IMG/VR virus record: IMGVR_UViG_3300010239_000031
Coordinates: 1 to 26,885 of that record
DNA length: 26,885 bases
Direction: 5' to 3' (one strand)
Origin: a virus
Lineage: Duplodnaviria; Caudoviricetes
In this document: positions 5,074-25,185 of the stretch, piece by piece
Layout: each line of letters starts with the position of its first letter
How positions within the stretch are numbered: the stretch's first letter is position 1
Made by a program: the position numbers and the translations under genes
Notes under the pieces: generated by a model
The model's database searches: none
What the model was told of the DNA's origin: nothing
Seen by the model: only the letters and a program-made list of their open reading frames with translations

Positions 5074-5090
5074 AAATTTTTAATAATAAA
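5074..5090 (-). repeat. att-like 17-bp core, left copy (inverted relative to 25169-25185)
   Basis: AAATTTTTAATAATAAA is the exact reverse complement of TTTATTATTAAAAATTT at 25169-25185; about 50 bp upstream of int. Confidence 0.65.
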
Positions 5091-5167
5091 GTTATCCCCA
5101 CTGTTTTTTAATGACAATTAACCCGCCGTCCTGAAAAACAACTTAGCCTATTCGAAACTCTTTGAGA

Positions 5168-5247
5168 GGGGCAATCTATTAGACTCCGAGAATTAGATTT
5201 ATGCTAATTTTTATAGTCTATGCCCCCATATTAGAGTAAATATGGGG
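5168..5247. promoter_or_regulatory. Nested and competing inverted repeats ahead of the late region
   Basis: GGGGCA/TGCCCC, TAGACT/AGTCTA, AATTAG/CTAATT nested; CCCCATATT/AATATGGGG stem covers the ATG at 5242. Confidence 0.45.
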
Positions 5248-5595
5248 ATAATTGAGTCTTTAAGCAGAAGATATGAGCATTCAGGGTGGAAATACGCTCA
5301 ACACTACTTTTTCCTCCATGCTATCAGACCAGACCTCAACCTGAATGAAGGGGACATAGAGAGGATACTGCACATACTCAAGAAAGTGGGAGTCAAGGAA
5401 CTTCACAGAAAAGCCTCCATGGAGCAGGTGCTCCTGGCACTCGCTGTCTTCGTGAAGGAGGAAGGGGGGCACCCTGTCCCACTGGATAGGTACAGGATCC
5501 TCAAGGAGTATTCCGTTGATTACAAATTATACACGACAGTACTCCGGAACCTTCTGCAATATTACCGGGCTAGAACACCAACTGTCAGAGGGTAG
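5242..5595 (+). CDS. TFB/TFIIB cyclin-repeat-like protein
   Basis: LNLNEGDIERILHILKKVGVKELHRKASMEQVLLALAVFVKEEGGHPVPLD follows the TFB repeat pattern L-x-L...I.K...L.R..S.E.V..A...G.P..LD. Confidence 0.55.
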   Translation: MGIIESLSRRYEHSGWKYAQHYFFLHAIRPDLNLNEGDIERILHILKKVGVKELHRKASMEQVLLALAVFVKEEGGHPVPLDRYRILKEYSVDYKLYTTVLRNLLQYYRARTPTVRG

Positions 5596-5598
5596 AGC

Positions 5599-5811
5599 GT
5601 GGAGGACTACCTGTTATTCAAGTTGAAGGTATGGGATAATTTCAATCTTATCCTGGCAGGTGAGGATGAATGCCCTGAGTGTGGCTGTAAACACTTTGAT
5701 TTTGACGCTGAGTACAATCTCTGCTGTCAGAACTGCGGATTGGTCCTGGCAGCTATCCACCCCTACGTTGCTGGGGAGCGTATTGATTTGCCCTGGGGTC
5801 TCCTCCTCTAA
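5599..5811 (+). CDS. TFIIB-type zinc-ribbon protein
   Basis: CPECG...FD......CQNCGLVL followed by IDLPW. Confidence 0.75.
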   Translation: MEDYLLFKLKVWDNFNLILAGEDECPECGCKHFDFDAEYNLCCQNCGLVLAAIHPYVAGERIDLPWGLLL

Positions 5812-5857
5812 TTCATGCAATTTTTTCTGGTAAGTCTGCAGATTTCACGACTACGTC

Positions 5858-5872
5858 ACAATATATAATAAA
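5858..5872 (+). promoter_or_regulatory. Putative late TATA box
   Basis: AATATATAATA about 30 bp upstream of the ATG at 5894 (AGGAGG RBS); T-tract at 5820-5826 may end the upstream transcript. Confidence 0.45.
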
Positions 5873-5893
5873 GGAAAACTTAGGAGGATCCCC

Positions 5894-6040
5894 ATGGATA
5901 AGGAGACAACTGCACTCACAGGATTAATCTTCATAGCACTCGCAGCACTCTATCTCCAAAAATATGAGATAGCAACAGCTTGCGTCGGAGCAATAGCAGG
6001 ATACATCACACAGACAGAAAAACGAGAGGGAACAGAGTGA
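5894..6040 (+). CDS. Small two-helix membrane protein, 48 aa (MDKETTALTGLIFIALAALYLQKYEIATACVGAIAGYITQTEKREGTE), holin candidate, not in ORF track
   Basis: AGGAGG RBS, two hydrophobic segments, charged C-tail, GTGA overlap with the next gene. Confidence 0.65.
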   Translation: MDKETTALTGLIFIALAALYLQKYEIATACVGAIAGYITQTEKREGTE

Positions 6041-6270
6041 CACATGAATGCACACATGACGATGATTGGAAGGAGTACCAGGAGTTCAAGGAGGAGATCA
6101 GGGCCTTCATTGCGGGGAAGAACATCCAGAACGGTGTCACCCAAGTGAACATCAAGGAACTAAAAGAAGAGATACAGTCACTAGAACGGAAACTCGACAG
6201 ACTACTATTCATATTCATCACAGCATTCATCACGCTCATCACAACAGCCCTCATCACAATCATACAATAA
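6037..6270 (+). CDS. Coiled-coil protein with C-terminal TM (XhlA/holin-like architecture); start re-called at GTG 6037
   Basis: IKELKEEIQSLERKLDRLLFIFITAFITLITTALITII. Confidence 0.6.
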   Translation: MTHECTHDDDWKEYQEFKEEIRAFIAGKNIQNGVTQVNIKELKEEIQSLERKLDRLLFIFITAFITLITTALITIIQ

Positions 6271-6291
6271 AACGCACTTGGGGGGACACCC

Positions 6292-6783
6292 GTGAGGGGA
6301 GAAGAACAAGAACACATAGACGCATTCAACCTATACTTCCAGCTCAGACAACAAGGACACAACAAAACTGAAGCTGTACGCAGAGTGGCAGCTAAGCACA
6401 GTGTAAGTGAAACGACTGTGTGGATGTGGAAGAAGAAGTTCCGCTGGGATGAACGTGAGAGTGTCAGGGCTGCTGAGGTGAACAGAAAGGTTGAGGAGCA
6501 TTTAAATGAACAACTCGCTGATTTTAAGGCACAATATCTCGGATTGCTGAATGACATGATTTTTCAGGTGATTGAGGAGCGTGAAGTTGACAGTGAAGTT
6601 GCGCTTCAGATCACTTCAATAACTGATCTTGAGAGGGTTGTCAAGTTAGCTCTCCTAATCCAGGGTGAATCCACGGAGAGGGTTGAGGAGGGTGTTAAAG
6701 CTGAATACGACCCAGAACTCATCAGAAAGATTGGTAGAAAGCTTATACAGGAACGAAGAAAGGGACAAGATACTGGCACGTGA
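6292..6783 (+). CDS. terS: Terminase small subunit
   Basis: N-terminal HTH (AVRRVAAKHSVSETTVWMWKKKFRWDER), directly before TerL. Confidence 0.75.
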   Translation: MRGEEQEHIDAFNLYFQLRQQGHNKTEAVRRVAAKHSVSETTVWMWKKKFRWDERESVRAAEVNRKVEEHLNEQLADFKAQYLGLLNDMIFQVIEEREVDSEVALQITSITDLERVVKLALLIQGESTERVEEGVKAEYDPELIRKIGRKLIQERRKGQDTGT

Positions 6784-8068
6784 ACTCCTCGACTACTACA
6801 TCTTCCACTACCTTGACTTCGACGTGCCAGGGCATCAGGAGTCATGGATACGTCATCTGGAGGGTGATGATGATCTCCTTGTCCTAGCCCCACGCGATCA
6901 CGGAAAGACGACGGTGTTCTGCAGGGCGTACCCCGAGCATTTGGCCCTCCACACCCCCAATATAAGGATACTGATTCTCTCCAAGACATACCGTCAGGCG
7001 GAGAAGTCACTGGATCTTATTGAGGCGGATCTCACCGGGAACCCGCGGATCACGAGGGACTATGCCTTGGAATTACAGGGGTACCGGCGTAAGGATAATA
7101 TGATATTCTTCAACCGCACTGAGGCCCAGCGCGACGCGACTATCGAAGCCGCGGGGCTGCTTGGGAGCATCACCGGGTCACACTTCGACGTGATCATCGC
7201 TGATGACCTCATAGATGATGAGTCCACGAGGACACGCCAACGGATGGATAATGTCTATCAATGGTTCCAGGGGACGGTGGAGCCCCTCCTCGAACCCTGG
7301 GGCAGGATGATCGTCGTCGGGACGAGGAAACACTACAATGATCTCTACGGGCGACTCATCGACTCAGACGCTTACACCGTGATTCATGACAAGGCCATCT
7401 GCGCTGATGGGAAACCCCTCTGGCCAGAACGCTGGCCCCTTGAGAAGTTGGAGGAGAAGAAGAGGAAGATGGGCTCTGTGATGTTCAACAGGGAGTACCA
7501 GAACGACCCCACCGGGTTACAGGGACAGTTGCTCAAGGAAGAATGGATTAGATACTATGATGAAGCACCGGAAGGGTTGAATGTTTATCAGGGGTGGGAC
7601 CTTGCTATCAGTCAATCCGAGACCGCAGATTACACTGTCTGCACCACCATCGGAGTCACCGACTCTGATGATGTGTATGTCCTGGACTGGTACCGTGACC
7701 GGATAGATTTCCCTACCCAGGTCACGATGGTGCAACGACTGGCCGATAAGTGGAGCCCTGTACTGGTTGGTGTGGAGGACGTCGCCTACCAGAGAGCTCT
7801 ACCACAGGAAGTCCTTAGGAGGAAACGTTTACCCTTGAAGGGCGTAAGGCCTGATAAGGATAAGATGAGGAGGATAATCTCCGAGTTCGTCTCCTTCGAG
7901 AATGGGAAGGTCTTCCTCCCCGCCAAGCATAGGCACCTCAACAATTTCCTCGACGAGTACCTCCAATTCGATAAGGGGGAGCATGATGACATGCTTGACA
8001 GCCTCTGCATCGCCATGAAGGTGAGCAGGCAGACAAAGTCGAGGATATTCATCCCCAGGAGGAGATAG
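6665..8068 (+). CDS. terL: Terminase large subunit (true start uncertain, possibly TTG near 6731)
   Basis: Walker A APRDHGKT, Walker B VIIADD, VVGT coupling motif, nuclease GWDLA and HDDMLDS. Confidence 0.95.
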   Translation: MNPRRGLRRVLKLNTTQNSSERLVESLYRNEERDKILARELLDYYIFHYLDFDVPGHQESWIRHLEGDDDLLVLAPRDHGKTTVFCRAYPEHLALHTPNIRILILSKTYRQAEKSLDLIEADLTGNPRITRDYALELQGYRRKDNMIFFNRTEAQRDATIEAAGLLGSITGSHFDVIIADDLIDDESTRTRQRMDNVYQWFQGTVEPLLEPWGRMIVVGTRKHYNDLYGRLIDSDAYTVIHDKAICADGKPLWPERWPLEKLEEKKRKMGSVMFNREYQNDPTGLQGQLLKEEWIRYYDEAPEGLNVYQGWDLAISQSETADYTVCTTIGVTDSDDVYVLDWYRDRIDFPTQVTMVQRLADKWSPVLVGVEDVAYQRALPQEVLRRKRLPLKGVRPDKDKMRRIISEFVSFENGKVFLPAKHRHLNNFLDEYLQFDKGEHDDMLDSLCIAMKVSRQTKSRIFIPRRR

Positions 8069-8070
8069 AC

Positions 8071-9726
8071 GTGTTCAATTATCATTTATCCATTAAATCA
8101 TTGGATCAGTATCGTGTCGTGAAGGATGATGATGTGAAGAGTCAGATCCAGAAACCCTCTACGGTGGGTGATGGGTATGTGGAGCCACCCATCCATCCCC
8201 TCACGCTCCTCAGCCTCTACCAGTCCAACCCCTACCACGCGTCAGCCTGTACATTGAAGGCGAATGATATACTCAGGTCCGGTTGGAGCCTCACAGACCC
8301 CGACGCAGCGACGGAGGTTAGGCGCTTCCTAAATAATTGCAGACCATCATTTGAATATACACTCCTCTCAGCGCTCCTCGACCTTCAGGTCTTCAATTAC
8401 TGCACCCTCGAAATAATCCGAGATAAAAGTGGGGCTCCTGTGAGGTTGGGGTACATCCCCGCCCACACCATCCGCGTGCATGAGGATGGGACAAGGTACA
8501 GGCACACGTGGGATGGTGTGAACGTCACTTACATGAAGGATTACCGCTATGAAGGGGAGGTTAATCCTGAGACGGGTGAGGACACTGATGGAGTGGGGGC
8601 AAATGAGGTCATCTTCATCAGCCTCCCCAACCCCCTCTGCAGTTACTATGGGGCCCCTAAGTACCTCTCGGCGGTGACGAGCATCCTCGGGATGAAGAAG
8701 GTTCAGGAGTATAACTACGCATTCTTCGATAATTTCACAATCCCCTCCTATCTCATCACGGTGACTGGTGAGTATGAGGATGAGATGATCCTCGACGCAG
8801 AGGGGAACCCCACAGGAAAAACCGTGCTGCAGGAACTCATCGAGGAGAACTTTGAGTACATCAGGCAGCACCCCCACACACCCATCGTCCTCTCAATCCC
8901 TGGTGGCGGGGACGTTGAGGTCACATTCCAACCATTAAACACTGATACGAATGACTTGGACTTCAGGGAGTATCTTCATGAGATGCGCCGTGATATCATC
9001 ACCGCCCACATGCTGGACCCATACCGCCTCGGTGTGGGGGACGTGGGGGCCCTCGGGGGTAACCTGGCGGAGGTGGCACGCAGGACGTACTATGAGTCAG
9101 TGATACGGCCACAGCAGAGGGTTATTTCATCTATATTCACTGATTTCATGCAGACACACTTTGATGTCGATGAGTCCGTGGAGTTCACCTTCAATGAGGA
9201 GATCATTCTCGAATCTGACGTTGTGAGGAGTTACACTTCATTGGTTCTATCAGGGGTGATGACTCCCCGTGAGGTCCGCCGCCGCTTATTCAATGATGAT
9301 AGTGGCCCCGACTACTACTACATCCCCACGAATGTTGTGCCCCACAATGAAGCTGCGACGAAGAGGGCCCCCAGGTTGGAGGAGAGGGCCTGGCAGCGCA
9401 TCATCAAGGACGCATACGAGAAACGGTATAAAGGACGGTTGGAGGCGGTGATAGATGACCGGGGCCTCACAGCGGAGCAGAAGAGGGAGGCAGTCGACAG
9501 GATCCTCCAATCATTTCGCGAGAACGTCTACAACGAGGCATCAAAGATACTGGAGGAGAGGGCCACCGTGGGGCTGCAGTCAGCCATCCGTAGAGGCGCC
9601 ACAGCCATGCCAGCCAGTGGCCATAACCTGGGGCAATATGATGAGCTCCTCAGGGCGAGCATCGATGACATGACTAACCGCCTCCAATCATACCTGTACA
9701 AGGTCATAGGGTGGCAGGTGACATGA
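8071..9726 (+). CDS. Portal protein (PBSX/HK97-like) with C-terminal extension
   Basis: Position after TerL; YIPAHTIRV, NEVIFI..PNPLCSYYGAP, YNYAFFDN, GVMTPREVR. Confidence 0.9.
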   Translation: MFNYHLSIKSLDQYRVVKDDDVKSQIQKPSTVGDGYVEPPIHPLTLLSLYQSNPYHASACTLKANDILRSGWSLTDPDAATEVRRFLNNCRPSFEYTLLSALLDLQVFNYCTLEIIRDKSGAPVRLGYIPAHTIRVHEDGTRYRHTWDGVNVTYMKDYRYEGEVNPETGEDTDGVGANEVIFISLPNPLCSYYGAPKYLSAVTSILGMKKVQEYNYAFFDNFTIPSYLITVTGEYEDEMILDAEGNPTGKTVLQELIEENFEYIRQHPHTPIVLSIPGGGDVEVTFQPLNTDTNDLDFREYLHEMRRDIITAHMLDPYRLGVGDVGALGGNLAEVARRTYYESVIRPQQRVISSIFTDFMQTHFDVDESVEFTFNEEIILESDVVRSYTSLVLSGVMTPREVRRRLFNDDSGPDYYYIPTNVVPHNEAATKRAPRLEERAWQRIIKDAYEKRYKGRLEAVIDDRGLTAEQKREAVDRILQSFRENVYNEASKILEERATVGLQSAIRRGATAMPASGHNLGQYDELLRASIDDMTNRLQSYLYKVIGWQVT

Positions 9727-10355
9727 CACGGCCGGGGGGCTTGGAATATGATGAGGACAAGGTCGACGCAATACTCGACGCCCTCACAGAAGAACTCGTC
9801 ATGATACAGAACAAGAAACTCCTCGGGGATGTGGAGGCATTCGCATCAGACCTGGAGGCCCTTCAACCTAAAGAATTCATGAGAAAATATGGTGTGTCAT
9901 CATCAGATTATGCCCGCCTCATATCCATCCTTGATGAAGCCGAGGACATAGAGTCCCCCATTGAGGAGGGGGATCATGATGTTGGCCTCATCCTCCTATA
10001 CCTTGGATTGGCGGTCACTTACCTTGCACGTGATGTGGAGAGGGACACGGAGGTGGAGGCATACCGTGCCAGTGGGGCGGAGTACCTGAACTGGGTGACT
10101 ATGGGGGATGAGGCGGTGTGTGCCACCTGTCAGGAGTATGAGGAGGGGTCACCCTACACAGTTGAGGAGTTCCCACACGTCCCTCACCCATGGTGCCGGT
10201 GCCACCCAGAACCCTGTGACGCCGAGGGGAACCCCTTGAAGCCGGGGGAACTCACAGCTGAGGAAGTTGAGGAGATTGAGAGGCTCATGGAGGGATTCCT
10301 CGACGTGGACCTCGACTATTTTGAGGTCCCTGGGAACCCCATCAGGATCCTCTGA
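9723..10355 (+). CDS. Head morphogenesis protein (SPP1 gp7 / Mu gpF-like)
   Basis: WVTMGDEAVCATC...PHPWCRC motif; ATGA overlap with portal. Confidence 0.8.
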   Translation: MTRPGGLEYDEDKVDAILDALTEELVMIQNKKLLGDVEAFASDLEALQPKEFMRKYGVSSSDYARLISILDEAEDIESPIEEGDHDVGLILLYLGLAVTYLARDVERDTEVEAYRASGAEYLNWVTMGDEAVCATCQEYEEGSPYTVEEFPHVPHPWCRCHPEPCDAEGNPLKPGELTAEEVEEIERLMEGFLDVDLDYFEVPGNPIRIL

Positions 10356-10399
10356 TAGTGTTCGTTATATCCGTGTTTAAGGAACAAGATGATTAAAAC

Positions 10400-11662
10400 A
10401 TGGAGGTGAATCCGTTGGCTTGGAAGTTGAACAGGAAGGCATATAACCACGCCGTCCAACTCATAGAGGCTGGAAATGTGACCGATGAGGCCTGGGAGAA
10501 ACCCCTCCTCGAGGACTTTGACGGGGATGTGGAAGAGTATGCCCTCTACCACCTTGCAGTGGACCCCGACGCGGACCCTGACACCACTCAGGCATACGGG
10601 TACCCATATGGACGGGATGGGAAGGTCTACCTCGCAGCCCTGAGAGCGATCCGATCAGCAGCAGCAGGGGGGCGCGGGGCTGCAAGGAATGAGGAGATCT
10701 TCGACGCCGCGGGCCGATTACTTGACATGGCGGTTGAGGAGGTCGCGGGGAAATCAGAGGGGCAGAGGATCCAGGACAACCTGATACTGAAGGTGGATGA
10801 GTACCGACGCCTCGTAAGCGGCCCGGTCCTCGTCCCCGGTGAACCTGACGTTGATGGGGATGTTGTGACTCCTGAGCAAGTTGAGGAGGTCGCTCACAGA
10901 TTCCTGGAGGATTATCAGAATGTGGATATCATGCATAGATTCAGGAATGTCGCCCGGCCAGTTGAATCCTACATCCTCGACGAGCCCCGTAGAATCAATG
11001 GGGTAGACTTACCACGTGGGACGTGGATGATGACCAGCAAGGTCTACGATGATGACGTCTGGGAGGGGATCATGTCAGGGGAGTATACTGGGTACAGTAT
11101 CACAGCAGTCCCACGCGCCACTAAAGACGCTCAACGGAGGACAACACTCAGGGATATAGGATGGCCCTTCGACGTTGTCACGGTGAGCATCGTGGACAAC
11201 CCTGCAGTCCCCAAGGCGAGATTCCTCTCCCTTAAGCATGATAATGGAGGTGATACAATGGATGAGAAATCCGTGCTGAAATCGATATTCCAGACACTCA
11301 AAGGCTACTTCGAATCCGAGGAGGAGAAGGAAGCCTCTGAGGAGGATGGGATCAAAGAGGAAGTTGAAAGCCTCAAATCAGAGATCAATGAACTAAAAGA
11401 GACCCTACGGTCTGTGGTGAAGGTCGTGGAGGATGCACAGGCCCATGAGCCAGAGGACACGTCGGACGCCGATGACACCCCCGCGGGGGAGGATGATGAG
11501 GATTACGAGGCGGATGCTGAAAAAGTGGATGATGAACCCCCCGCCGATGAGGAGGCTGAGGCCCAGGCGATGAAGGGGCAGATTGGAGGCGGTAAAGTAA
11601 CATCCGTGAGGGAACTCCTCGCGGAGGAGATAGGGGTTGACATGTTTGGCAGACCACTATAG
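10400..11662 (+). CDS. Prohead protease (XkdF-like) fused to scaffold
   Basis: GPVLVPGEPDVDGD...DIMH...PVESYI...GTWMM...GEYTGYSI; acidic coiled-coil C-terminus. Confidence 0.85.
   Translation: MEVNPLAWKLNRKAYNHAVQLIEAGNVTDEAWEKPLLEDFDGDVEEYALYHLAVDPDADPDTTQAYGYPYGRDGKVYLAALRAIRSAAAGGRGAARNEEIFDAAGRLLDMAVEEVAGKSEGQRIQDNLILKVDEYRRLVSGPVLVPGEPDVDGDVVTPEQVEEVAHRFLEDYQNVDIMHRFRNVARPVESYILDEPRRINGVDLPRGTWMMTSKVYDDDVWEGIMSGEYTGYSITAVPRATKDAQRRTTLRDIGWPFDVVTVSIVDNPAVPKARFLSLKHDNGGDTMDEKSVLKSIFQTLKGYFESEEEKEASEEDGIKEEVESLKSEINELKETLRSVVKVVEDAQAHEPEDTSDADDTPAGEDDEDYEADAEKVDDEPPADEEAEAQAMKGQIGGGKVTSVRELLAEEIGVDMFGRPL
11258..11662 (+). CDS. Nested in-frame scaffolding protein (134 aa)
   Basis: Internal GGAGGTGAT RBS and in-frame ATG; 17 nt identical to the MCP initiation region. 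Confidence 0.65.
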   Translation: MDEKSVLKSIFQTLKGYFESEEEKEASEEDGIKEEVESLKSEINELKETLRSVVKVVEDAQAHEPEDTSDADDTPAGEDDEDYEADAEKVDDEPPADEEAEAQAMKGQIGGGKVTSVRELLAEEIGVDMFGRPL

Positions 11663-11680
11663 AAGATTTGAGGTGATACA

Positions 11681-12622
11681 ATGGATATGATGGACATGTA
11701 CACAAGGCCATTCGCAATAGTCCCCAAGATAGATGTCCCTGACCTTGGCCGGGGAGTCCTACCAGTCCAGAGGTTCGGACAGTTCGTCAGGGAAGTCAGG
11801 GAATCATCATCCCTGATAGGGGAGGCGAGGATACTGAATGCTCTACAGTCATATGAGGTGGACATTTCACGTATCGGATTGAATGTCCAGTTGGAAGCTG
11901 GTAGGGACAATACAGGTGCAAAGGTCGCCCCAACAGAGGACTCAGTGGATGTCACCACTAACACCCTGAGCATGAAGGAGCTCATCACCAAGATCAGCAT
12001 AGAGGATGAGACCCTCGAGGATAACATTGAGAGGGCCCAGTTCGAGCAGACCCTCGTCACCCTACTGGGTCAGGGTGTGAGTTATGACTTGGAGTGCTTC
12101 TTCCTACACGCTGATACCAGTTACACGGGTGACAGGGCGCTCTACAAGATAAATGATGGTTGGATGAAACTGGCTGGTAATCAGGCAACAACGGCAAGCC
12201 CAACGGATGATGACTGGCCACTCAGCCTATTTGATGAGATGCTCGGGAAGGTCCCTAACAGGTACAAGCAGATGATCCCTCAGATGAGATTCTATGTCTC
12301 ATGGGATATCCTTGAAGCGTACAGGGAGTACTTGAAGGGCAGAGAATCAGCGGTGGGTGATCAGGCAATAATCGGTGGTCCTAACCTGACATATCAGGGC
12401 CTACCCGTCCAGTACGTCCCGGCCCTTGATGCTCTCCAGGATGGGAAGGTGAGGGCCCTTCTCACAGTACCCGCCAACCTGGTCTACGGGTTCTGGCGTA
12501 ACATAAAGGTGGAGCCGCAGAGGGATGCCCCTATGAGACGTACAGAGTACATTGTGAGTCTCAGGGCTGATTGCCATTATGAGGACGAGAAAGGAGCAGT
12601 ATCAGCGACCATAACAGTTTAG
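11681..12622 (+). CDS. Major capsid protein (HK97 fold)
   Basis: Position, 313 aa, strong GAGGTGAT RBS, ISIEDETLEDNIE and DGWMKLA patterns. Confidence 0.88.
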   Translation: MDMMDMYTRPFAIVPKIDVPDLGRGVLPVQRFGQFVREVRESSSLIGEARILNALQSYEVDISRIGLNVQLEAGRDNTGAKVAPTEDSVDVTTNTLSMKELITKISIEDETLEDNIERAQFEQTLVTLLGQGVSYDLECFFLHADTSYTGDRALYKINDGWMKLAGNQATTASPTDDDWPLSLFDEMLGKVPNRYKQMIPQMRFYVSWDILEAYREYLKGRESAVGDQAIIGGPNLTYQGLPVQYVPALDALQDGKVRALLTVPANLVYGFWRNIKVEPQRDAPMRRTEYIVSLRADCHYEDEKGAVSATITV

Positions 12623-12635
12623 AATGGGGGATCAT

Positions 12636-12926
12636 ATGGATACAAATGAACGATTGGACAGTATGATTCAGGAATTCTCTATCAAATATCCAGGTGTAAA
12701 CATCAACAACTTCGACGAATTCTTTAACCAGCCCCCTGGTTTTCTCAAGGATGTCAGTGATTACGCATATGAACTCCTGAAATTCAATGATTACATTAAA
12801 ATGTCCGGGAACAGACAGCGAGATATTAGAAGACTTTATAGATTAACGGCACTCTTACTTTTGGGTTTGATGTACACGAGTCAGAGACTCAGCACCCTTG
12901 AAAATCCACCGGAGCCTCCAGAATAA
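12636..12926 (+). CDS. Hypothetical protein after MCP
   Basis: GGGGGAT RBS before ATG 12636; no recognised motif. Confidence 0.6.
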   Translation: MDTNERLDSMIQEFSIKYPGVNINNFDEFFNQPPGFLKDVSDYAYELLKFNDYIKMSGNRQRDIRRLYRLTALLLLGLMYTSQRLSTLENPPEPPE

Positions 12927-12941
12927 TGTGAGGTCTCAGCT

Positions 12942-13265: not shown

Positions 13266-13283
13266 CGATAAGGGGGTGGATGT

Positions 13284-15161: not shown

Positions 15162-15172
15162 GGTGACCCGCT

Positions 15173-16654: not shown

Positions 16655-19600
16655 TTGAGTGATCATAGCCTTGCTGTGCAGGTTCAGATGGATGCTGAGG
16701 AAGTGTTGAACGGTTTGAATGAGATTAACAATATGCTATCAAATCTTCCAGGTTCAGTGGAAGTCGATTTCACCAGTGAAGATGCAATCACTCCCATCCT
16801 TGAATCTATCCAGGAGGGTTTGAACAGCCTGCCCTCAGACGTTGAAATCACCATCTCAGCATTCGATGACTTCGCCACAGAGACCATCACAAATCTTAAA
16901 GACCTTGTGGAGGCATTGCCATCAGAAGTGAATGTGAACCTCACAGCAGAGGATAATGCATCGGATCTGCTTGATTCTTTGAAGGAGAAACTCTCTGAGG
17001 AATTCAACATAACATTGAACGTTGATGATAACGCTACAGAAACAATTACAAGCCTGAAAGAACTCCTTAGTGAACTCCCATCCACTGTGGATATCTCCTT
17101 GAATGTGGAGGGTAATGCTACAGAAATAGTTGAGAGACTCCATGAACTCCTAGGGGATATCCCTGATGAGGTCACAACCACAGTGAACGCTGAAGTTAAT
17201 GAAGGGGGGGTGGAAGACCTTAAGGCTAAACTTGAGGAGATCGATGGGACCACATATGATACTGCAGTTAATGTGGATACAGAATCAATTGAAACAGCTA
17301 CTGAGACAACAAACACATTCACCGGAGCTGTTGATGGTTTAACATCGAAGGTTGCTGGCTTAACGGCGGGATTCTTCTCATATAATAAAACACTCGAACT
17401 CTTAGATTATAATAGGATAATTGAGCAGTCAGCAATTCTCACGAATGCAACTCAAAGTCAGAGAGAAGCCATGGAGGATCTAATCCGTGAAAACTATGTC
17501 TACTCACTAGGGATGAAGGGAACAGCGTCAGTGATGTACACACTTGCAGCCTACACCAATGATGTGAACTTGACTATGGGATACTTTGAAGCAGCCCTTC
17601 TTGGGGTTAAAAGGAGTGGTGAGGATGCCTCTACAGTGTCACTGGCACTTGCAAGGGTCTTCAGAAATTTCAATGTCAGCGTCCAGGACTCAATGGATAC
17701 TGTTAATCTCTTCCTTGGGCTTTGGAGGATTTCAGGTTATCCATCCTTCACACAGTTCATTGATACCGTTGATAGGCTCGGATACTTCTTCAGACAAGCC
17801 GGTTTGAATGCTGAGGACACAGCCAGGATAATTGCATCAGTAGGCCCTGTTGGCACACGACTTCTGAGACCATTCGCTAAAGAGTTAACTGAAATCTCAA
17901 GGGAATGGGAGAGGGGTGGTACGGGTGTCCAGGAATACGGTGATAAACTTGAAAAGTTTGGCGTGGCTGTGAAAGACGCTCATGGTAATATCAGACCATT
18001 CCGTGATGTGCTTTTTGATTTTATAGAGGTTCTTTCTCGGATTCCTGATCAGCAGGAACGTGTTAGGGTGGCCACTGAGGTTTTTGGTGAATCGGTGGGG
18101 CCAGCGCTGGCACAGGTGGCAAGTAACTGGAAAACCACGGGTAAGGTAACTGAAGAGGAATCTGAGAGGATGAACAAAGCGCTCGGTAAATCAGCGGAAA
18201 AACATAGGGATATATTAGGATGGATAAGGTACTATCTGGATCAGTTCGTGATATGGTTGAACGATTTTTTCGGTGACATGGGCCTAATCGGAGAATCACT
18301 GCTTGTTGGGGTATTCGCAAAAGCCGCTGAGTACCTTGCCGAAGGCTTAAAGAGACTCATCCCACGTGTCACTGGGGCTATCAGGAGGCTATTGTCCGAC
18401 GGATTCGATGAATTGAAGGGAAGGTTGCCTGAGGAACTGTCACGCCGCCTCATAGATACATTATCTGAAGGATTTGATAAGGCGGCGGGCAAAGCAAAGG
18501 ATATCATTAAGGGGTTTATTGACACGATTAAGAGGATCCTTGGTGATGAGACAGGCCGTTTAACACCTAAAATTGAGATCCCTGCAGAATTCAAATTCAA
18601 ACTCCCCAAAATAGATTTAACTATAGGGGATACTCAGATTGATGACGCTGCAAGGACCCTCCTAGAGAGATTCACGGGGGGTGTTGATGACGCTGCGAGG
18701 GGGTTCCTCTCAAGGTTCTCATCATCATTGGATGATGCTGCGAGGGTGAGCCTCCCCTCCCTCGGATCCAGGATAGGTTCACTCCTTGTGAGGGGTATTG
18801 GTGAGGGTGTGGGTGCGGCTCTCATGACCGTGGACATCCTCGCAAACTTCAGGCAATACTTGAGTGATGCTCTCACAGATCCTACAAAATTAGTTGGGCC
18901 TATAAGCTATACAATCCCTGAACCTTTAAAGAAACTATTAAGTCCCGAAAACCTCTTCAAGAGGCTGTACGGCCCTGAGGAGTGGGAGAAGAGGAAGGGT
19001 ATCCTCATGGATAATACTAAAAAGTATGTAGAGGATCCCATCCGCGAGCAGCTCCGAGAGTTCGCTGAGAACCCGCCAGGGTACCTCATCCAGGGATTCA
19101 GTCAGATGTGGAATGATTTCAAATCATGGGTATCATCTCATATACCCAAGTTCAGATGGCCAAGACTTCCCAGCCTCAGCATACCTAACCCTGTGACTGC
19201 TATCCAATCCGCGTGGGCCAAATTTAGGGAATGGGTGTCATCTCATATACCCCGATTCAGGTGGCCACGCCTACCTAACATCACAATACCCAACATAGTC
19301 GGAGCTATCCAATCCGCTTGGGCCAAATTCAGGTCATGGGTATCATCCAATATACCCCGATTCAGGTGGCCCAGACTCCCCAACGTATCCATGCCTGATA
19401 TCCTCGGGGCATTCAGGAGGACATGGAGCACCTTCACATCTAAGGTTAGGGGGGTCTTCTCAGGCTTCAAGTGGCCACGCCTCCCCCTCCCTAACTTCAG
19501 TGGGATAGCATCCAGTTTCAGAGCGTGGGGGGCACGCTTCATCCACAACCTTGTTGAAGGGATAAGGTCCGCCCTCCCCAACCTGAACAATATCCTCGCT

Positions 19601-19996
19601 AAGATCAGGCGACTACTCCCATCGTCACCCCCCAAGGAGGGCCCCCTATCCAGCCTCACCTATGACGTCATGAAGGAGTACGGTTACCTCCTGGGTCATA
19701 GTTTCAGTGAGGGCCTCAGCGCCACCATCCCCTCTGTCATTGATGGCCTTGGAAGAGCCCCATCACCCCCCAGCCTCTACATCCCCACTGGTGGTGTGGG
19801 GGCCATCCACTCCCTGCAGCCCAGGGTGGAGGTCCACACACATGTGAATGTGGATACAGTGAGATCCGAGGTTGACGTGGAGAGGATGGCTGATAAGATC
19901 ACGCGTAAAGTTGCGGAGCAGATGGATGAGGAGATGCTCCGCCAGGGGATCCCCGGATTCCTGTATGGTAACAGGTACGTGACTGCTCTGAGGTGA
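16655..19996 (+). CDS. Tape measure protein
   Basis: 1113 aa helical protein after the chaperone; LEKFGVAVKDAHGNIRPFRDVL and LPSSPPKEGPL motifs; internal repeats. Confidence 0.92.
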   Translation: MSDHSLAVQVQMDAEEVLNGLNEINNMLSNLPGSVEVDFTSEDAITPILESIQEGLNSLPSDVEITISAFDDFATETITNLKDLVEALPSEVNVNLTAEDNASDLLDSLKEKLSEEFNITLNVDDNATETITSLKELLSELPSTVDISLNVEGNATEIVERLHELLGDIPDEVTTTVNAEVNEGGVEDLKAKLEEIDGTTYDTAVNVDTESIETATETTNTFTGAVDGLTSKVAGLTAGFFSYNKTLELLDYNRIIEQSAILTNATQSQREAMEDLIRENYVYSLGMKGTASVMYTLAAYTNDVNLTMGYFEAALLGVKRSGEDASTVSLALARVFRNFNVSVQDSMDTVNLFLGLWRISGYPSFTQFIDTVDRLGYFFRQAGLNAEDTARIIASVGPVGTRLLRPFAKELTEISREWERGGTGVQEYGDKLEKFGVAVKDAHGNIRPFRDVLFDFIEVLSRIPDQQERVRVATEVFGESVGPALAQVASNWKTTGKVTEEESERMNKALGKSAEKHRDILGWIRYYLDQFVIWLNDFFGDMGLIGESLLVGVFAKAAEYLAEGLKRLIPRVTGAIRRLLSDGFDELKGRLPEELSRRLIDTLSEGFDKAAGKAKDIIKGFIDTIKRILGDETGRLTPKIEIPAEFKFKLPKIDLTIGDTQIDDAARTLLERFTGGVDDAARGFLSRFSSSLDDAARVSLPSLGSRIGSLLVRGIGEGVGAALMTVDILANFRQYLSDALTDPTKLVGPISYTIPEPLKKLLSPENLFKRLYGPEEWEKRKGILMDNTKKYVEDPIREQLREFAENPPGYLIQGFSQMWNDFKSWVSSHIPKFRWPRLPSLSIPNPVTAIQSAWAKFREWVSSHIPRFRWPRLPNITIPNIVGAIQSAWAKFRSWVSSNIPRFRWPRLPNVSMPDILGAFRRTWSTFTSKVRGVFSGFKWPRLPLPNFSGIASSFRAWGARFIHNLVEGIRSALPNLNNILAKIRRLLPSSPPKEGPLSSLTYDVMKEYGYLLGHSFSEGLSATIPSVIDGLGRAPSPPSLYIPTGGVGAIHSLQPRVEVHTHVNVDTVRSEVDVERMADKITRKVAEQMDEEMLRQGIPGFLYGNRYVTALR
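16745..17200 (+). repeat. About 28-aa acidic repeats in the TMP N-terminus (approximate bounds)
   Basis: LPS(D/E)V.I.L..(E/D)D.ATETI..LK unit repeated about 5 times. Confidence 0.7.
19105..19500 (+). repeat. 105-bp / 35-aa tandem repeats in the TMP C-terminus (approximate bounds)
   Basis: W..F.SWVSS.IP.FRWPRLP unit, 3 close copies plus 1 degenerate. Confidence 0.85.
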
Positions 19997-20439
19997 TGAT
20001 GATGGTGATAGTATATGGTGACTGGAGTATAGAGGGGAAGAAACCATCAGGGATAGTGTCTGTACATGTGAGTCTGCCCACCGTCACCCTGCAATGTGTA
20101 GCCCTCCCATCCTCAAATGGCACCCCCCTCGATGAGATTAAGGAGTTCATGGCCATGGCGAGGTACCAGGTGACTGATGATTACCTCCTCAACATGGGGA
20201 CATACGTCCAGGGGGACAGACGCAGGGACCTCCTCCGCATCAGCGACGGGGTGAACCATTACCTCGGCCTCATCGAAGCCCCGGATTACACGCTGGATAA
20301 GTTCAGTGAGGAGATCATAGAGTACACACTCAAGATCCACCTCGAGTTACCCTCTGATATCTCCAAAGTCTACAGTGCAAGCCCATTCAGTCCCTCCTCT
20401 TTTAATTCCTTCTATTTCCGTGTGGGGGGTTCGCAGTGA
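19993..20439 (+). CDS. Putative distal tail protein
   Basis: First gene after the TMP; size. Confidence 0.45.
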   Translation: MMMMVIVYGDWSIEGKKPSGIVSVHVSLPTVTLQCVALPSSNGTPLDEIKEFMAMARYQVTDDYLLNMGTYVQGDRRRDLLRISDGVNHYLGLIEAPDYTLDKFSEEIIEYTLKIHLELPSDISKVYSASPFSPSSFNSFYFRVGGSQ

Positions 20440-21218
20440 AGGATTTCAGGATGATAGAGTGGGGGGGCCTTGGATGGGTGGATATGGAGGAACAGGTCAT
20501 CACTGCGCGGAGGGGTGACACCGTCAAGGGGTACTTCACAATCAAGAACACGGGGGACACGGTGATAGATGACCTACTCATCCACGCCGCCCCTGACCCA
20601 TTCGCGAAATTCAGTGATAAACAGGTGCAGATGAATGACCTGATGATGAACTGCCTGTACTTCACATCCAGTCTCCCGGATAAGATAATGCCAGGGGAGG
20701 AAGTCACCGTATACTACACATTGGATTGCATGTATAGTGGGCCCTTCCAGTTCATCATCCTCGCATCCGCGTCTAACCCTACAGGAGAGTTTCACACGGG
20801 GCCCCCATTTAATTATAATGCGGTCGTGAAAGGCCCCTACATTAACCGTGAGGAATGGTTCATTGACTTTAATCTTCCAGCGCCCCCGAGGAGGTCGAGG
20901 GGGGACTATGAGGACATCGCCATCGCCCCCACCGGGGGGGACCTCCCGTATATCCCATGGATCTGGCTCAAGAGGGGTGACGGGGGTGAGTGGAAGATAC
21001 GGGCCTACCTCAACGCCCCCGGGGGGTTCACCCCACGGGTCTCGGATAAGTGGATGGGGTACATCTACACGGGTTTCAGCGTCCCCCACGATCCGGGGAG
21101 GCTGGTGAATTATGAGTGGTTGAAGAGCCAGAGCCCCACGGCGACTGTGAATATCACGTCGTGGAGGGAGTCCACCTGCATCTATGATTATTTCGTCGTG
21201 AAGGGGGTGATACGATGA
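20436..21218 (+). CDS. Putative tail-tip protein, beta-rich (Ig-like N-domain)
   Basis: GDTVKGYFTIKNTGDTVI...IMPGEEVTVYY pattern; synteny. Confidence 0.5.
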   Translation: MKDFRMIEWGGLGWVDMEEQVITARRGDTVKGYFTIKNTGDTVIDDLLIHAAPDPFAKFSDKQVQMNDLMMNCLYFTSSLPDKIMPGEEVTVYYTLDCMYSGPFQFIILASASNPTGEFHTGPPFNYNAVVKGPYINREEWFIDFNLPAPPRRSRGDYEDIAIAPTGGDLPYIPWIWLKRGDGGEWKIRAYLNAPGGFTPRVSDKWMGYIYTGFSVPHDPGRLVNYEWLKSQSPTATVNITSWRESTCIYDYFVVKGVIR

Positions 21219-21904
21219 TGTTAATCAGGGGGGATAGGGCCCTCCTTTTCACCAGCCTCCGCATCAGCCACCAGATCAATTCCACAGCAATGATTCATTT
21301 TGACACCCCTGAGGACATCAGAATCGGTGATAAAGTAATGGTCAGGGGGGACGACGACAAACTACTATTCTATGGGTACGTGAACTACATCTCCCTCGAC
21401 TACAAGACAATGAGGAGGAGGTGCAAGGGGGTGGCAAGCCCAATCCTGAACAAGCTCATGCAGTACTCGTACACATTCCCAGACTCAGAGTTTCGGTCAT
21501 GGGGGGTGGTAATGTTACGGTTCCTGCAGAGTTGTGGGGTGCGGTTACACCCTCATTCATACGTCCCCTCTAATAATATAGGGAGAGGGTACTTGTATGG
21601 GACAATGGCACAGCCAGGGGCCACGGCCCTGGACACGTTCCTGAAGCTCCACCCCTTTTTTGGGCGGATTGAGACTGAAGGTAGTAAGAGGTATGTGACT
21701 GTGAAATGGGATGACATCATCAACAACCTGATCGAGGAGACAGGCAGGGACCTTTTCTGGGTCCTCTACGATGACATGATATACGTAGGGGTGAAGGGCG
21801 CTGCGGGGTTTGAGGTGGACCCCACAATCCTCACCTCCGCGGTGATCACAGAGGATGCCACACAAATCGTAGAGTCACTGCAGAACATACAGGTGGTGTA
21901 CTAA
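21215..21904 (+). CDS. Baseplate hub-like protein, N-terminal part
   Basis: IRIGDKVMV...LLFYGYVNYI hub-type strands. Confidence 0.55.
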   Translation: MMLIRGDRALLFTSLRISHQINSTAMIHFDTPEDIRIGDKVMVRGDDDKLLFYGYVNYISLDYKTMRRRCKGVASPILNKLMQYSYTFPDSEFRSWGVVMLRFLQSCGVRLHPHSYVPSNNIGRGYLYGTMAQPGATALDTFLKLHPFFGRIETEGSKRYVTVKWDDIINNLIEETGRDLFWVLYDDMIYVGVKGAAGFEVDPTILTSAVITEDATQIVESLQNIQVVY

Positions 21905-22945
21905 TTGGTGAGTGATCAGTGGCTACAGGATGTGAGGGGGTGGTACCGTGTCCCCATAGGGGGCACGGAGATCCAGTACCTTGAAGGGGACGATTGGAGC
22001 GTCGACGTGGGATGGGCGTTGGGGTGGCCGAGGAAGAAGACATCCACCTACTCACCATTCACTGACCCCGGGGCCTCCGCTTCACGGTTCGGCTTCAGCT
22101 ACAAGCCAGTCGATAATTGGAGGTATATGGTCATTGAGTCGCCTGACTTCAGCACCCCCATCGGTGTTTCGAGGGCGGGGGCGACGGTCCTCGCCCAGGG
22201 CGGGCGGCCATCGGCGACCGCGGGGATATGGACAGTCGCATGGGTAAGCGGCCCCACCACCTACGCCCAGTGGGATGATGAAATCAAAACCCTCATAATC
22301 GACCCAGGGTACTATGTAACCAAGGAGTGGGCTGTGGTGATGAAGTACTGGTCATCCGCGAGGTCAGGGCCTGTGTTCAGCACCGCCACCGTGAAGCTAT
22401 ACAGTATTGGCCCCCCATCCACATTCAGTCCGGTCCCTGAGTTCAGTGAGGATGAAAGCAGAAACCCAGAGTGGGGGCATAAGGAACCAGGACCCCTCCC
22501 ATCCGGGGGCCCTAAATATATAGATTATGGGGCGTCTAAGAGTGGGGGCCCTATCTTGGGGAGGGGGCCATTCACTGATGCGGAGAGTCGTAGGGAGGAA
22601 GGGAACCCACTCAACCCATTCCTCAGTTACCCTGGAGTGAATGATGATAATAGTCTCTTCAATGTCACAAACCCGTTCTCTAATCCCTATGTATCTGAGA
22701 AGGCCGCGAAGCCGGGGAGTGAAATAGAATGCACGGTGGAGGGATACTATGAGTGCCTCGTAGGGGACCATATCATCCTCCCAGAGGACCCAGGGCGGAG
22801 GCGGTTCATCATCACGGATGTGACCTACTCCTCCGACGACGGCGCGATCAGGACGACGATCAGGGGATCAGTGGATGGGGAGATCAGAACGTCACAGGCC
22901 ACACTAATCCGCGGCCTCGTGAACTACCTGTATGGCAGACGATGA
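21905..22945 (+). CDS. Baseplate hub-like protein, C-terminal part
   Basis: Same frame as the previous ORF across a single TAA; ends with VGDHIIL...FIITDVTY...TTIRG. Confidence 0.55.
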   Translation: MVSDQWLQDVRGWYRVPIGGTEIQYLEGDDWSVDVGWALGWPRKKTSTYSPFTDPGASASRFGFSYKPVDNWRYMVIESPDFSTPIGVSRAGATVLAQGGRPSATAGIWTVAWVSGPTTYAQWDDEIKTLIIDPGYYVTKEWAVVMKYWSSARSGPVFSTATVKLYSIGPPSTFSPVPEFSEDESRNPEWGHKEPGPLPSGGPKYIDYGASKSGGPILGRGPFTDAESRREEGNPLNPFLSYPGVNDDNSLFNVTNPFSNPYVSEKAAKPGSEIECTVEGYYECLVGDHIILPEDPGRRRFIITDVTYSSDDGAIRTTIRGSVDGEIRTSQATLIRGLVNYLYGRR

Positions 22946-22962
22946 ATATTTGGAGGTGAAAG

Positions 22963-23574
22963 GTGATGAAGGTATGGCATAAGGCGGTGGCAAGTCAGAA
23001 CCACCAGATAGATGGGGATGATTGGAATGATGAACACTTGATAGAGGGCCTAGACGAATTCATATCCACATACTGCCCCTACTCAGTGAAGGGCGGGGGG
23101 AATATCCAGGACAAGGACGGATCATACACGGTGAACCTGAATTACACCAGCAGCACAATCCCTGGGGAAATAATAGTTGAGTTCAGGTGCACGGGGAGGA
23201 GGAAGGACTCGAATGACGCCCCAGTCATCCTCCGAGTTGATAGTGACAGCACAGAATCCAATTACGCGGGGGTATACTTCAAGATAGGATCAAGTGGCCC
23301 CACATATGGGGCTACGAGTGGCGGGGGCCTCCCAATACTCTCCCTCCAAGACCAGGGTTCAGCTGGGGATTACCCCTTGATGGGGAGACTCGAGTGCTAC
23401 CTGAATGGGAGGATACTCACAGTATCATCTCTTGTCGCAGGTGGGGGTGCTATGAATATAGTCTCGGGGATGTACACGAAGGCCTCGGTGTTCACGAACC
23501 CCCCAACCCTGTCACTTATCATTCCAGGTAATGGGTACATTGATGAGCTAGTCTGGAGGGTGATGCTGGGATGA
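22963..23574 (+). CDS. Putative receptor-binding / tail fibre protein 1
   Basis: N-terminal WH...DWN..H.I anchor shared with the next gene; GGAGGTGA RBS. Confidence 0.5.
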   Translation: MMKVWHKAVASQNHQIDGDDWNDEHLIEGLDEFISTYCPYSVKGGGNIQDKDGSYTVNLNYTSSTIPGEIIVEFRCTGRRKDSNDAPVILRVDSDSTESNYAGVYFKIGSSGPTYGATSGGGLPILSLQDQGSAGDYPLMGRLECYLNGRILTVSSLVAGGGAMNIVSGMYTKASVFTNPPTLSLIIPGNGYIDELVWRVMLG

Positions 23575-24194
23575 TATGGCATCGTAGTAAGATTGGGGGG
23601 GCTGTGACCCCTGGCGACTGGAATCAGGACCCGCATGTGATTGATAGGGACGCCCTTCTAGATTACCTCGGCTCCGGTGTCGGCTCCGGTGGAGGCGGCA
23701 GCAGTGGTCACTGGCGCCTCCTCAAGCTTTACAACTTTGAGGAGCCAATTCATTCCTTTAATTTCCAGGTGCCAACCGATTTAGACGTGCTTAAACTCGA
23801 GTACGCGGTGAGGGTTACATGGTCCGCTGGTGAGGGCCATTTCAGAATACTCTTTAACAATGATGATAACAAGTCGAACTATAGCAGCTTCATGCACTAT
23901 ATTGACACTAGCGGGGGCCATAGCAGGGTGGATACATGGCCCTTTGAGTATCCATTCTTCGCCCGAGGAGAAGCAGCTAACGAGATAGCGATGAACGTTG
24001 GGCATGTATTGATCACCTTGAAACCTGGAGTGAGGCGGTTTGCTGTGAATGATAACACGATAATTGGTAGGGATTACAGGTTTTGGGGGGTGCAGATTGG
24101 CCGTTGGAACGATTTAACCTCTACTGTTGATTCAATCCACATTAAATCGCGTGATGGGACTTTAACCGGGAAGGTGGCGGTATATGGCTGGTGA
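23571..24194 (+). CDS. Putative receptor-binding / tail fibre protein 2
   Basis: Same anchor, Gly-Ser linker, beta-rich C-domain. Confidence 0.55.
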   Translation: MIWHRSKIGGAVTPGDWNQDPHVIDRDALLDYLGSGVGSGGGGSSGHWRLLKLYNFEEPIHSFNFQVPTDLDVLKLEYAVRVTWSAGEGHFRILFNNDDNKSNYSSFMHYIDTSGGHSRVDTWPFEYPFFARGEAANEIAMNVGHVLITLKPGVRRFAVNDNTIIGRDYRFWGVQIGRWNDLTSTVDSIHIKSRDGTLTGKVAVYGW

Positions 24195-24348
24195 ATTTAG
24201 GGTTATGATCCCAGAGGATGGTGATGGGCAACTTTCTCTGACCCATTTCCTGAATGAATACACTGGAGATGAGGACTTCGCAGGGTCAGGGGTGATTACT
24301 GAAATTAATGATGAGTTTAATGAATCTAATTTTTGGAGGTGGACATGA
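24184..24348 (+). CDS. Small acidic ORF, 54 aa (MAGEFRVMIPEDGDGQLSLTHFLNEY...FWRWT), not in ORF track
   Basis: RBS-like GGAAGGTGGCGG; ATGA overlap with pei. Confidence 0.5.
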   Translation: MAGEFRVMIPEDGDGQLSLTHFLNEYTGDEDFAGSGVITEINDEFNESNFWRWT

Positions 24349-25028
24349 TTAATAAGAACACTCCAGAGTATGTATCCATAACCCAATTTAAAGACATGTT
24401 AAGCAGGTACAACCGCTTCAAGGAGGTTAATGGGAGAGAACCCAGGGTAGTGTTCATCAACTCAGGTGGGGGCCCAAGCGTATCGTTAGAAACCTTCAAA
24501 GACATGTGCAAGAGATATAATCAGTTCCTTGAAGAAAACCGAAGGGAGCCAAGGATAGTATACGTGACTCCCCCTGAACCACCCGTGCCTGAGGAGGTCA
24601 GGGAGATGCGCAGGGTTCTCGGTGAATTCAAAACAGCCACACAGCTTTACACTCTCGTCTCAAGGAGATGTAAGTACAAATTCTACTATAATGACCAAAC
24701 ACCAAACAGGGAAGCCCTTAAAAAGATGGTGACTGATGGGATCAATTGCACCGACGCCTGTCAAGTTTTCAAGCCAGTTATCGAGGGACTCGGCTATTCA
24801 GTCCGCATAGAACACGTTAAAGTTAAATGTAACGACAACAAGTGGTATGGGCATTACTTCCTCCGCGTCGCGGGGAAGGAATTGGCCAGCGTCAGTCTCC
24901 CCTCTGAACGGTGGACAGTCTGGGACTATGTCAGCGCCACCAAGACGGGCCGGCCCTTGGGGGCCCCCTGCTGTAGTAGGGGTATCCAACATCTTGGTTG
25001 GGGGATAGTGGGTCCTGTTTATGATTGA
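24345..25028 (+). CDS. peiP: Pseudomurein endoisopeptidase (PeiP-like endolysin) with two PMB repeats
   Basis: PMB repeats (FKDM..RY..F...N.REPR.V), transglutaminase-like triad INCTD / YGHY / VWDY; GGAGGTGG RBS. Confidence 0.93.
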   Translation: MINKNTPEYVSITQFKDMLSRYNRFKEVNGREPRVVFINSGGGPSVSLETFKDMCKRYNQFLEENRREPRIVYVTPPEPPVPEEVREMRRVLGEFKTATQLYTLVSRRCKYKFYYNDQTPNREALKKMVTDGINCTDACQVFKPVIEGLGYSVRIEHVKVKCNDNKWYGHYFLRVAGKELASVSLPSERWTVWDYVSATKTGRPLGAPCCSRGIQHLGWGIVGPVYD

Positions 25029-25168
25029 TATTACATAAAAAAATAAATAAGAAGAGATATTGTTTGTGGCAGAGACATGCATGTGTTGTTGTGATTGCAT
25101 TGAATATATTACTTTCTATAAGTATCAGTACGAAAATTTGAAGGGAAAATTAAACTTTCTTGTTTAAT

Positions 25169-25185
25169 TTTATTATTAAAAATTT
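25169..25185 (+). repeat. att-like 17-bp core, right copy (candidate attR)
   Basis: TTTATTATTAAAAATTT between pei and the first ORB; reverse complement at 5074-5090. Confidence 0.65.

Follow-up and report, generated by a model that had tools for sequence, protein, structure and literature searches.

We analyzed a 26,885-nucleotide stretch of DNA (hereafter, the window), positions 1 to 26,885 of the IMG/VR record IMGVR_UViG_3300010239_000031. By homology, the window is a complete-looking psiM2/psiM100-like provirus (Psimunavirus, Leisingerviridae) in Methanothermobacter, followed by the host replication origin (oriC) and the initiator gene cdc6. The provirus, about 25,455 bp from core to core, is inserted within the predicted origin, and its early arm, which carries the integrase (Int) gene, is inverted relative to the late module. 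In the reading that we favor, with a probability of roughly two in three, the viral Int used a cryptic site within the viral genome, denoted S, as a secondary attachment (att) site, inverting the early arm, after which inversion of the late module would be favored and excision would be weaker.

Three att-type sites and the inverted early arm

The 17-mer AAATTTTTAATAATAAA at 5074-5090 recurs, exactly reverse-complemented, at 25169-25185, as a previous sequence-only reading of this DNA had claimed. The exact match ends at 17 nt and reaches 21 nt if one mismatch is allowed; no longer exact inverted repeat exists in the window. Inverted repeats of at least 17 nt occurred in 8 of 100 shuffles (50-nt blocks), so that the length by itself is moderately beyond chance. 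The pair is considered real because the 17-mer is identical to the psiM100 core annotated in GenBank (AF301375, attL 1514-1530 and attR 30295-30311; the same core is also tabulated in S7 Table of Liu et al. 2021, PMC8651126) and because both copies are set in psiM100 arms, with 98.9% identity of 3836-5095 to psiM100 int and the attL side and 89.5% identity of 24913-25185 to the peiW end and the attR side. The earlier assignment of these sequences as psiM100-type att cores therefore stands, as do the location of int inside the bracketed element and the statements that the psiM100 att sites are direct repeats (AF301375 has direct full cores) and that int follows pei in psiM2 (there, peiP).

Matches to psiM2 and psiM100 fall on the minus strand at 56-5095 and on the plus strand at 5204-25185. 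Early and late arms are co-oriented in all seven other relatives that show both (L001, L002, L003, L084, L086, L126, and L132; the count excludes L128, which is near-identical to the window, and L175, which is without an early arm). Thus, the flipped piece is the 5.35-kb early arm and not the late module, which had been taken as the rearranged segment. When viral contigs were scanned for other genomes in the inverted state, the matches were psiM100, L003, and chance-like sequences (9 of 11 apparently due to chance), in a scan that may miss records very close to the window; a repeat scan of the G008 provirus, a sequence full of masked N runs, gave no att.

The window was trimmed at gene ends, beginning at a stop codon and finishing at the cdc6 stop, and hence its left end is not the end of the provirus; the early arm runs 274 nt beyond this edge, through a repeat-rich, AT-rich viral tract denoted Z. 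Scanning Joint Genome Institute (JGI) metagenomes with a degenerate pattern yielded six stretches, namely, L127 and L128 (one contig), L126, L129, and two unrelated ones. Over 15,110 nt, L128 (LDZS01004131.1) matches the window with 99.993% identity; it extends 363 nt further left, into a junction (site L; 74-89, about window -289 to -274) that consists of the host oriC arm (B), TAAC, 12 nt of the core, and Z. The third core for which a search to the left had been proposed accordingly exists in L128, about 280 bp left of the window and in direct orientation to attR, but in a degenerate form (12 of 17 nt). Its direct orientation leaves excision geometrically possible, contrary to the notion of a geometrically locked provirus. 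Because the early arm is inverted, the direct repeat at the true provirus ends includes only 12 nt of the core (plus TAA), the full cores being inverted.

The native form of S was identified in L126, an unrelated contig that carries the virus in the canonical gene order, where it reads X arm, TAAC, 12 nt of the core, and Z. The Z arm of L128 is identical to that of L126 at 338 of 338 nt, on the opposite strand. Site S is also present in L003 (10 nt of the core), in the sequencing run X2 described below (12 nt of the core and TAAC), and, by the same joint, in run X4; it was not found in psiM100, psiM2, L084, L086, L132, or L175. The arrangement of the arms suggests that native S (X-Z) and attL (B-P') swapped partners over a shared 16 bp (minus strand, TAACTTTATTATTAAA), yielding L (B-Z) and a middle site, M (X-P'). 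The arm inverted between the shared stretches is 5,353 bp. For 5091-5240, the sequence-only reading had left the choice between host and virus to a comparison with relatives: 5091-5203 is viral, being present in L003, L126, and X2, and a host origin of this segment was rejected, given also that no match was detected in 9 of 9 Methanothermobacter genomes.

The 4000-7000 stretch of the window is contained in 20 of the 24 listed sequencing runs, five of which (X1 to X4 and X6) were examined, all as short-read contigs, which drop rare variants. Run X1, possibly the source of the record, contains a single 25,503-nt contig (depth 103.2) that starts 304 nt left of the window and ends at 25198. The empty site is represented by a 48-nt contig (depth 66.9), and the host arm has a depth of 176.8. 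The lengths exactly fit a k = 31 bubble that opens after the host arm plus 12 nt of the core and closes after the core plus 13 nt; about 61% of the X1 origins carry the provirus. A candidate intact attP in X1 was rejected: with a single X1 record on 1-9000, the loose end behind 25185 corresponds to site M within that one contig. Run X2, from another study, contains the canonical virus, with position 1 joined via 274 nt to 5079, along with attP (pei-core-int) and an unbroken empty oriC; this virus is an unintegrated form. The same canonical joint was found in X4. In X3, which comes from the same study as X1 and has a depth of 4-8, one contig reads P'-core-X (record 12, depth 5.8) and another reads X-core-B', where B' is the right oriC arm (record 19, depth 8.4); both end in the same 30-mer. 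The X-core-B' contig represents either the junction predicted from a flip of the late module or integration through S. No P-side or empty-site contig is listed for X3, and nothing informative on the junctions was found in X6. Two predictions of the sequence-only reading are thereby matched by contigs: the pei-core-int junction that a flip would recreate exists as attP in X2, and core-by-core recombination, expected to invert rather than excise, has its other flip product, X-core-oriC arm, in X3.

The host site inside the replication origin

The empty locus with a full core is present in two genomes of the genus (G007 and G011) and in the metagenome contig L129, to which the window flank is 97-99% identical. 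The host flank is 97-98% identical to G011 and G007, placing the host in the genus of L004, Methanothermobacter. In G007, G011, and L129, an array of 12 boxes resembling mini origin recognition boxes (mini-ORBs), six on the minus strand followed by six on the plus strand, precedes cdc6, together with AT-rich tracts, and the cluster holds eight of the nine exact ORB-type boxes of each of the genomes G007 and G011. On these features, the locus is predicted to be an ORB-type oriC; a single replication origin has been reported for M. thermautotrophicus (PMC4010727). In all three empty loci, the core follows the fifth of the 12 boxes, 3 nt past the matched box, so that insertion leaves five boxes on the left and seven, with cdc6, on the right. 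The site had been described as next to oriC; it lies within it, between boxes five and six.

The oriC copy is the only perfect core in G007 and likewise in G011. Among the five genomes searched, the core was found in oriC in two, G013 carries the core twice, on either side of a psiM100-like provirus at a different locus, and no perfect copy was present in G008 or G012. The origins of other species differ at the insertion spot. The core coincides with one of three AT peaks in the origin (0.80, 0.78, and 0.82 in 40-nt windows), and we did not adopt it as the unwinding element of the origin, given that it is one of the three.

G011, whose oriC site is empty, has CRISPR (clustered regularly interspaced short palindromic repeats) spacers (G011:C1:984,800-986,400; L112) corresponding to window positions of about 5342-5378 (two matches), 5399-5433, and 5698-5735. 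In another Methanobacteriaceae metagenome-assembled genome (MAG), about 1.7 kb of AT-rich DNA interrupts the ORB array (L018, 7997-9742), a possible second case of insertion in oriC. A perfect mini-ORB-like box (TTACACTTGAAA) within the viral late genes, at 13599-13611, is probably due to chance.

Insertion sequences occur in bacterial oriC regions. Element-borne origins, such as Sulfolobus oriC3 and those of haloarchaea, are likewise cases of mobile elements reshaping archaeal origins (PMC4010727); these elements add origins elsewhere, whereas the provirus described here splits an existing ORB array. A full-text literature search yielded no report of a provirus in oriC; Luo et al. 2001, Capaldi and Berger 2004, and Medvedeva et al. 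2023 fell outside this search. The main text of bioRxiv 10.1101/2025.11.27.691053 mentions no oriC, cdc6, or Methanothermobacter, and its supplements, outside the search, may list the site.

The integrase, the proposed mechanism, and rival explanations

Int is identical to psiM100 ORF29 at 392 of 402 residues and retains the catalytic residues K206, H283, R286, H309, and Y318. In Int, the box-I arginine is replaced by glycine, as in 28 of 31 aligned Methanobacteriales sequences (the window and 30 loci, L144-L173); Arg204 is conserved in 30 of the 31, and the Arg-x-Lys-Thr motif is nearly invariant. The arginine two residues before the lysine may stand in for the box-I arginine, so that the active site of this family is possibly rewired; a dead integrase was rejected because glycine in box I is a family trait, and activity is seen solely through the recombination products. 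This widespread Methanobacteriales family was detected in 84 of 301 genomes. The SAM-like domain starts at residue 21, leaving no room for an arm-binding domain of the lambda type, and no arm-binding Pfam domain was found; by sequence, the nearest solved relative is an archaeal XerA. Archaeal integrases that have been tested recombined every site arrangement and required no cofactor (PMC8371274). Ten aligned sites all share ATTATTA between imperfect inverted 7-mers, from which we infer a 7-bp overlap, ATTATTA, flanked by 7-bp half-sites. The half-sites of attB, M, and R are symmetric at 5-6 of 7 positions and those of L, native S, and psiM100 attL at 4 of 7; given the score of psiM100 attL, symmetry alone does not rank the sites. 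In X2, a depth-17 contig skips int (window 3816-5040), and the depth of int is half that of the remainder, suggesting that some members of the unintegrated population have no int or a different one.

The sequences document the empty attB in oriC, native S, attR, and both hybrids of the exchange, L and M; attP was found in a different run, and the late-flip junction in yet another. We propose that a psimunavirus integrated at the 17-bp core within the ORB array beside cdc6 and that Int, probably acting in a Xer/Cre-like manner without arm sites, recombined attL with the cryptic site S, inverting the 5.35-kb early arm; three att-type sites would result. Recombination between M and R, which have full cores in opposite directions, would then invert 20 kb and rebuild attP inside the chromosome. 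In L, which retains 12 of the 17 nt, the right half-site is AATAATA instead of AAAATTT and the left half-site overlaps a mini-ORB by 3 nt; because of this degenerate right side and the overlap with the ORB, excision (L with R) and reversal (L with M) are predicted to be slower. No gene is broken by the flip, in which each transcription unit moves intact along with the DNA upstream of it; hence, we consider the flip a likely by-product of relaxed site specificity, one that spread clonally and may have done so by lowering excision. Three orders of events are compatible with the data and cannot be told apart: integration followed by the flip of the early arm, a flip in the circle followed by integration, and integration via S followed by the flip of the late arm. 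The inversion is supported, and a locked state is unproven.

Several observations weigh against this reading. A single X1 contig covers 1-9000 and no other orientation survives, so the flip is not at equilibrium. The X3 junction extends just 13 nt into X, at a depth of about 8 and in contigs rather than reads; X3 comes from the same study as X1, and X-core-B' is also explicable by integration via S. The excision product of the window state, a P-core-Z circle, was not seen in the run contigs examined, and L128, 99.99% identical to the window, may not be independent of it. Finally, a 16-nt match to a model attL was reached in none of 200 block shuffles of the virus (longest, 13), suggesting that S may not be a mere AT-rich accident and that the flip may be more than a chance side reaction.

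An unlikely but substantive alternative is that the provirus is trapped, with Int requiring the P and P' arms as lambda Int does, so that only inversions take place and the element never leaves oriC. Indeed, P' is at M and P at R, with neither at L, and the P- and P'-bearing sites oppose each other in every reachable state; furthermore, both forms beyond the window state in the same study (X3) are of the inversion type, and integration at a secondary site is said to hinder excision (PMC8371274). However, every route to the window state involves at least one exchange at an arm-less site, so that arm dependence cannot be strict, and the N-terminal arm-binding domain of the lambda-type heterobivalent integrases is not evident in Int. 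There is also no sign of decay: by tblastn, 31 of the 35 tested open reading frames (ORFs) of the window have homologs in psiM2, and likewise in psiM100, and none looked broken. Moreover, about 40% of the X1 origins are empty and may include cured cells. We hold it distinctly improbable that the virus targets the sole origin of the host on purpose, with S as a switch making a chimeric origin (five orphaned ORBs, a 96%-AT tract, and repeats), ORB-bound Cdc6 blocking excision, and the host dependent on, or locked to, the provirus. Quite improbable, too, is a programmed switch in which S is an evolved second att site toggling the arm orientation, for example, to set the excision rate or to place the viral AT tract and repeats beside the host ORBs. 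Such a switch would fit the occurrence of S in at least four data sets with canonically ordered viruses (L003, L126, X2, and X4), its position at the end of the viral repeat region, and the shuffling result; nevertheless, S is absent in the six relatives listed above and decayed to 10 nt in L003, no promoter is parted from its gene, X1 is fixed in one state, and there is no separate invertase. The inversion of the tail-fiber locus of the Natrialba virus phiCh1 is likewise catalyzed by a tyrosine recombinase within an archaeal virus genome (PMC8651126). In phiCh1 and the phage shufflons, a dedicated invertase swaps gene ends, varying the protein, whereas here the recombining site is the integration core itself, whole 5- or 20-kb arms are turned around, and no gene acquires a new end. 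The window has one recombinase gene, all sites are intergenic, and the genes keep their upstream DNA, in contrast to phase variation of that type; one orientation was seen in X1 and two junctions, at low depth, in X3.

We also assign a very low probability to an inversion made by a host enzyme, be it XerA or a RadA-type recombinase acting on a 16-bp stretch of AT-rich identity. The glycine in box I of Int and a report that the psiM2 Int is inactive (bioRxiv 10.64898/2026.10.07.757236) would speak against the viral enzyme. Against a host enzyme, this glycine is the family norm, accompanied by the invariant-looking Arg204-x-Lys206; the same Int (98% identical) is found at two host sites with the same core; the attP, attB, and attR forms all exist; and all exchanges fall within the att overlap. 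A 16-bp identity is also short for homologous recombination, which argues against the RadA-type route. Misassembly at an AT-rich repeat was the main alternative of the sequence-only reading, and all the sequence indeed comes from short-read contigs. The unbroken X1 contig, which covers 1-9000 without a branch at depth 103, and the clean provirus/empty-site bubble contradict it, the shared stretch (16-17 nt) is below the assembly word length, the reciprocal junction exists in L128, and the same M junction is present in a second sample (X3); we give this explanation almost no credence.

Relatives, genome features, and implications

Overall, the window works like secondary-att-site integration by a known virus group, and the oriC insertion is as notable as the inversion. 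The window shares with psiM100 (AF301375) the 17-bp core, Int, the P and P' arms, and the gene order in each arm. The psiM100 provirus is flanked by mtw1216 and the fibrillarin gene; its full cores are direct repeats and its two arms share one orientation, in contrast to the oriC location, three sites, and inverted early arm found here, and its terminase is only 28% identical to that of the window, over part of the protein. Many of the homologs in psiM2 (AF065411) are 85-100% identical, and pei is followed by int on the psiM2 circle; by contrast, the core is absent (no match within three mismatches), and Int is 65% identical to that of the window. The psiM2 virus is reported to stay extrachromosomal (bioRxiv 10.64898/2026.10.07.757236). 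The THM-1 provirus (NZ_CP044013 1493241..1518755; Liu et al. 2021) has the same core and a similar size (25,498 bp), but is flanked by direct repeats, with an intergenic target as tabulated (PMC8651126); in that tabulation, both same-core proviruses, psiM100 and THM-1, are intergenic with direct repeats. Considering that its host is 98.81% similar to M. wolfeii SIV6 (PMC8459667), THM-1 is probably at the psiM100-type site, not in oriC. Secondary att sites of lambda and SSV1 and the inversions by IntpTN3 similarly reflect relaxed recognition of near-core sequences, lead to rearrangement, and can hinder excision (PMC8371274); here, unlike in those cases, the secondary site lies, inverted, within the virus's own genome, and the primary site is in oriC.

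Features of the window (position 1 is its first nucleotide)
Feature	Coordinates	Strand	Evidence or remark
Inverted early arm: int and homologs of ORF30, ORF31, and ORF1-ORF4	1..5073	-	Minus-strand psiM100/psiM2 matches, remainder plus
Tyrosine integrase Int, 402 aa	3818..5026	-	Homology to psiM100 ORF29
P' arm: viral side of psiM100 attL, upstream of int	5027..5073	-	Flank identical to AF301375 attL
Middle site M: full 17-bp core, hybrid X arm - core - P' arm	5074..5090	-	Inverted relative to L and R
16 bp common to oriC attB/attL and cryptic viral site S; exchange inside it	5079..5094	-	L126, L128, L087, L088; X2 joint
X segment: viral DNA upstream of ORF6, outer arm of cryptic site S	5091..5203	+	Found in L003, L126, X2
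Late module: ORF6, terminase, portal, protease, capsid, tail, tape measure, baseplate region, pei	5242..25028	+	Colinear with psiM2/psiM100
pei, pseudomurein endoisopeptidase	24333..25028	+	
P arm: viral side of attR	25029..25168	+	psiM100 attR-side match; joined to P' in X2
attR (site R): P arm - full core - host oriC arm B'	25169..25185	+	Host identity begins here versus G007/G011/L129
Right part of host oriC, seven mini-ORB-like boxes	25186..25600	+	Boxes: 25207 minus; 25272, 25321, 25372, 25442, 25491, 25580 plus
Host cdc6/orc1 initiator gene	25737..26885	+	Pfam Cdc6_lid, Cdc6_C; 97% to Methanothermobacter sp. MAG L004

The genes of a head-tail set are present, with terminase, portal, capsid, tape measure, Peptidase_C71, and Phage_integrase; an Rfam search gave no match. 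The Pei protein has two cell-wall-binding repeats, compared with four in PeiP. The terminase module (5980-8068) is 28-29% similar to those of psiM2 and psiM100, yet common to L003 and L126, as in a mosaic genome. ORF6 (5242-5811, plus strand) has a predicted cyclin/TFIIB-like fold, with leads below the naming bar, and is followed by an ORF with a weak TFIIB zinc ribbon; the two are possibly a split TFB-like late activator. Within the X segment of L003, between the cryptic site and ORF6, there is a three-gene cassette (5604-8326; 207, 184, and 403 aa), perhaps marking a cargo hot spot, with a unit that is perhaps defense or toxin-antitoxin-like. The repeat region at L128 90-363 consists of TGTATATACA-type units, and psiM2, psiM100, L003, and L086 carry TGTACATACA-type 125-bp repeats there; this region is a putative viral origin, now beside the left ORB array of the host. 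At position 1276, the window has one C fewer than X1 and L128, likely a homopolymer error.

The provirus is a 25-kb insertion amid a single predicted origin, in about 60% of the chromosomes of one natural population. It allows a direct test of the ORB boxes and AT tracts required by a methanogen origin and of whether any part of the origin is supplied or replaced by the virus. We found no biochemical study of a psiM100-type integrase in the literature searched, and the three-site arrangement is a natural substrate set for such an enzyme, with its unusual catalytic motif. A tool for integration in Methanothermobacter could be built from Int and the 17-bp core, although in some hosts the only perfect target is oriC. 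More generally, the window illustrates one route by which a provirus may pass from excision to inversion, a first step of domestication.

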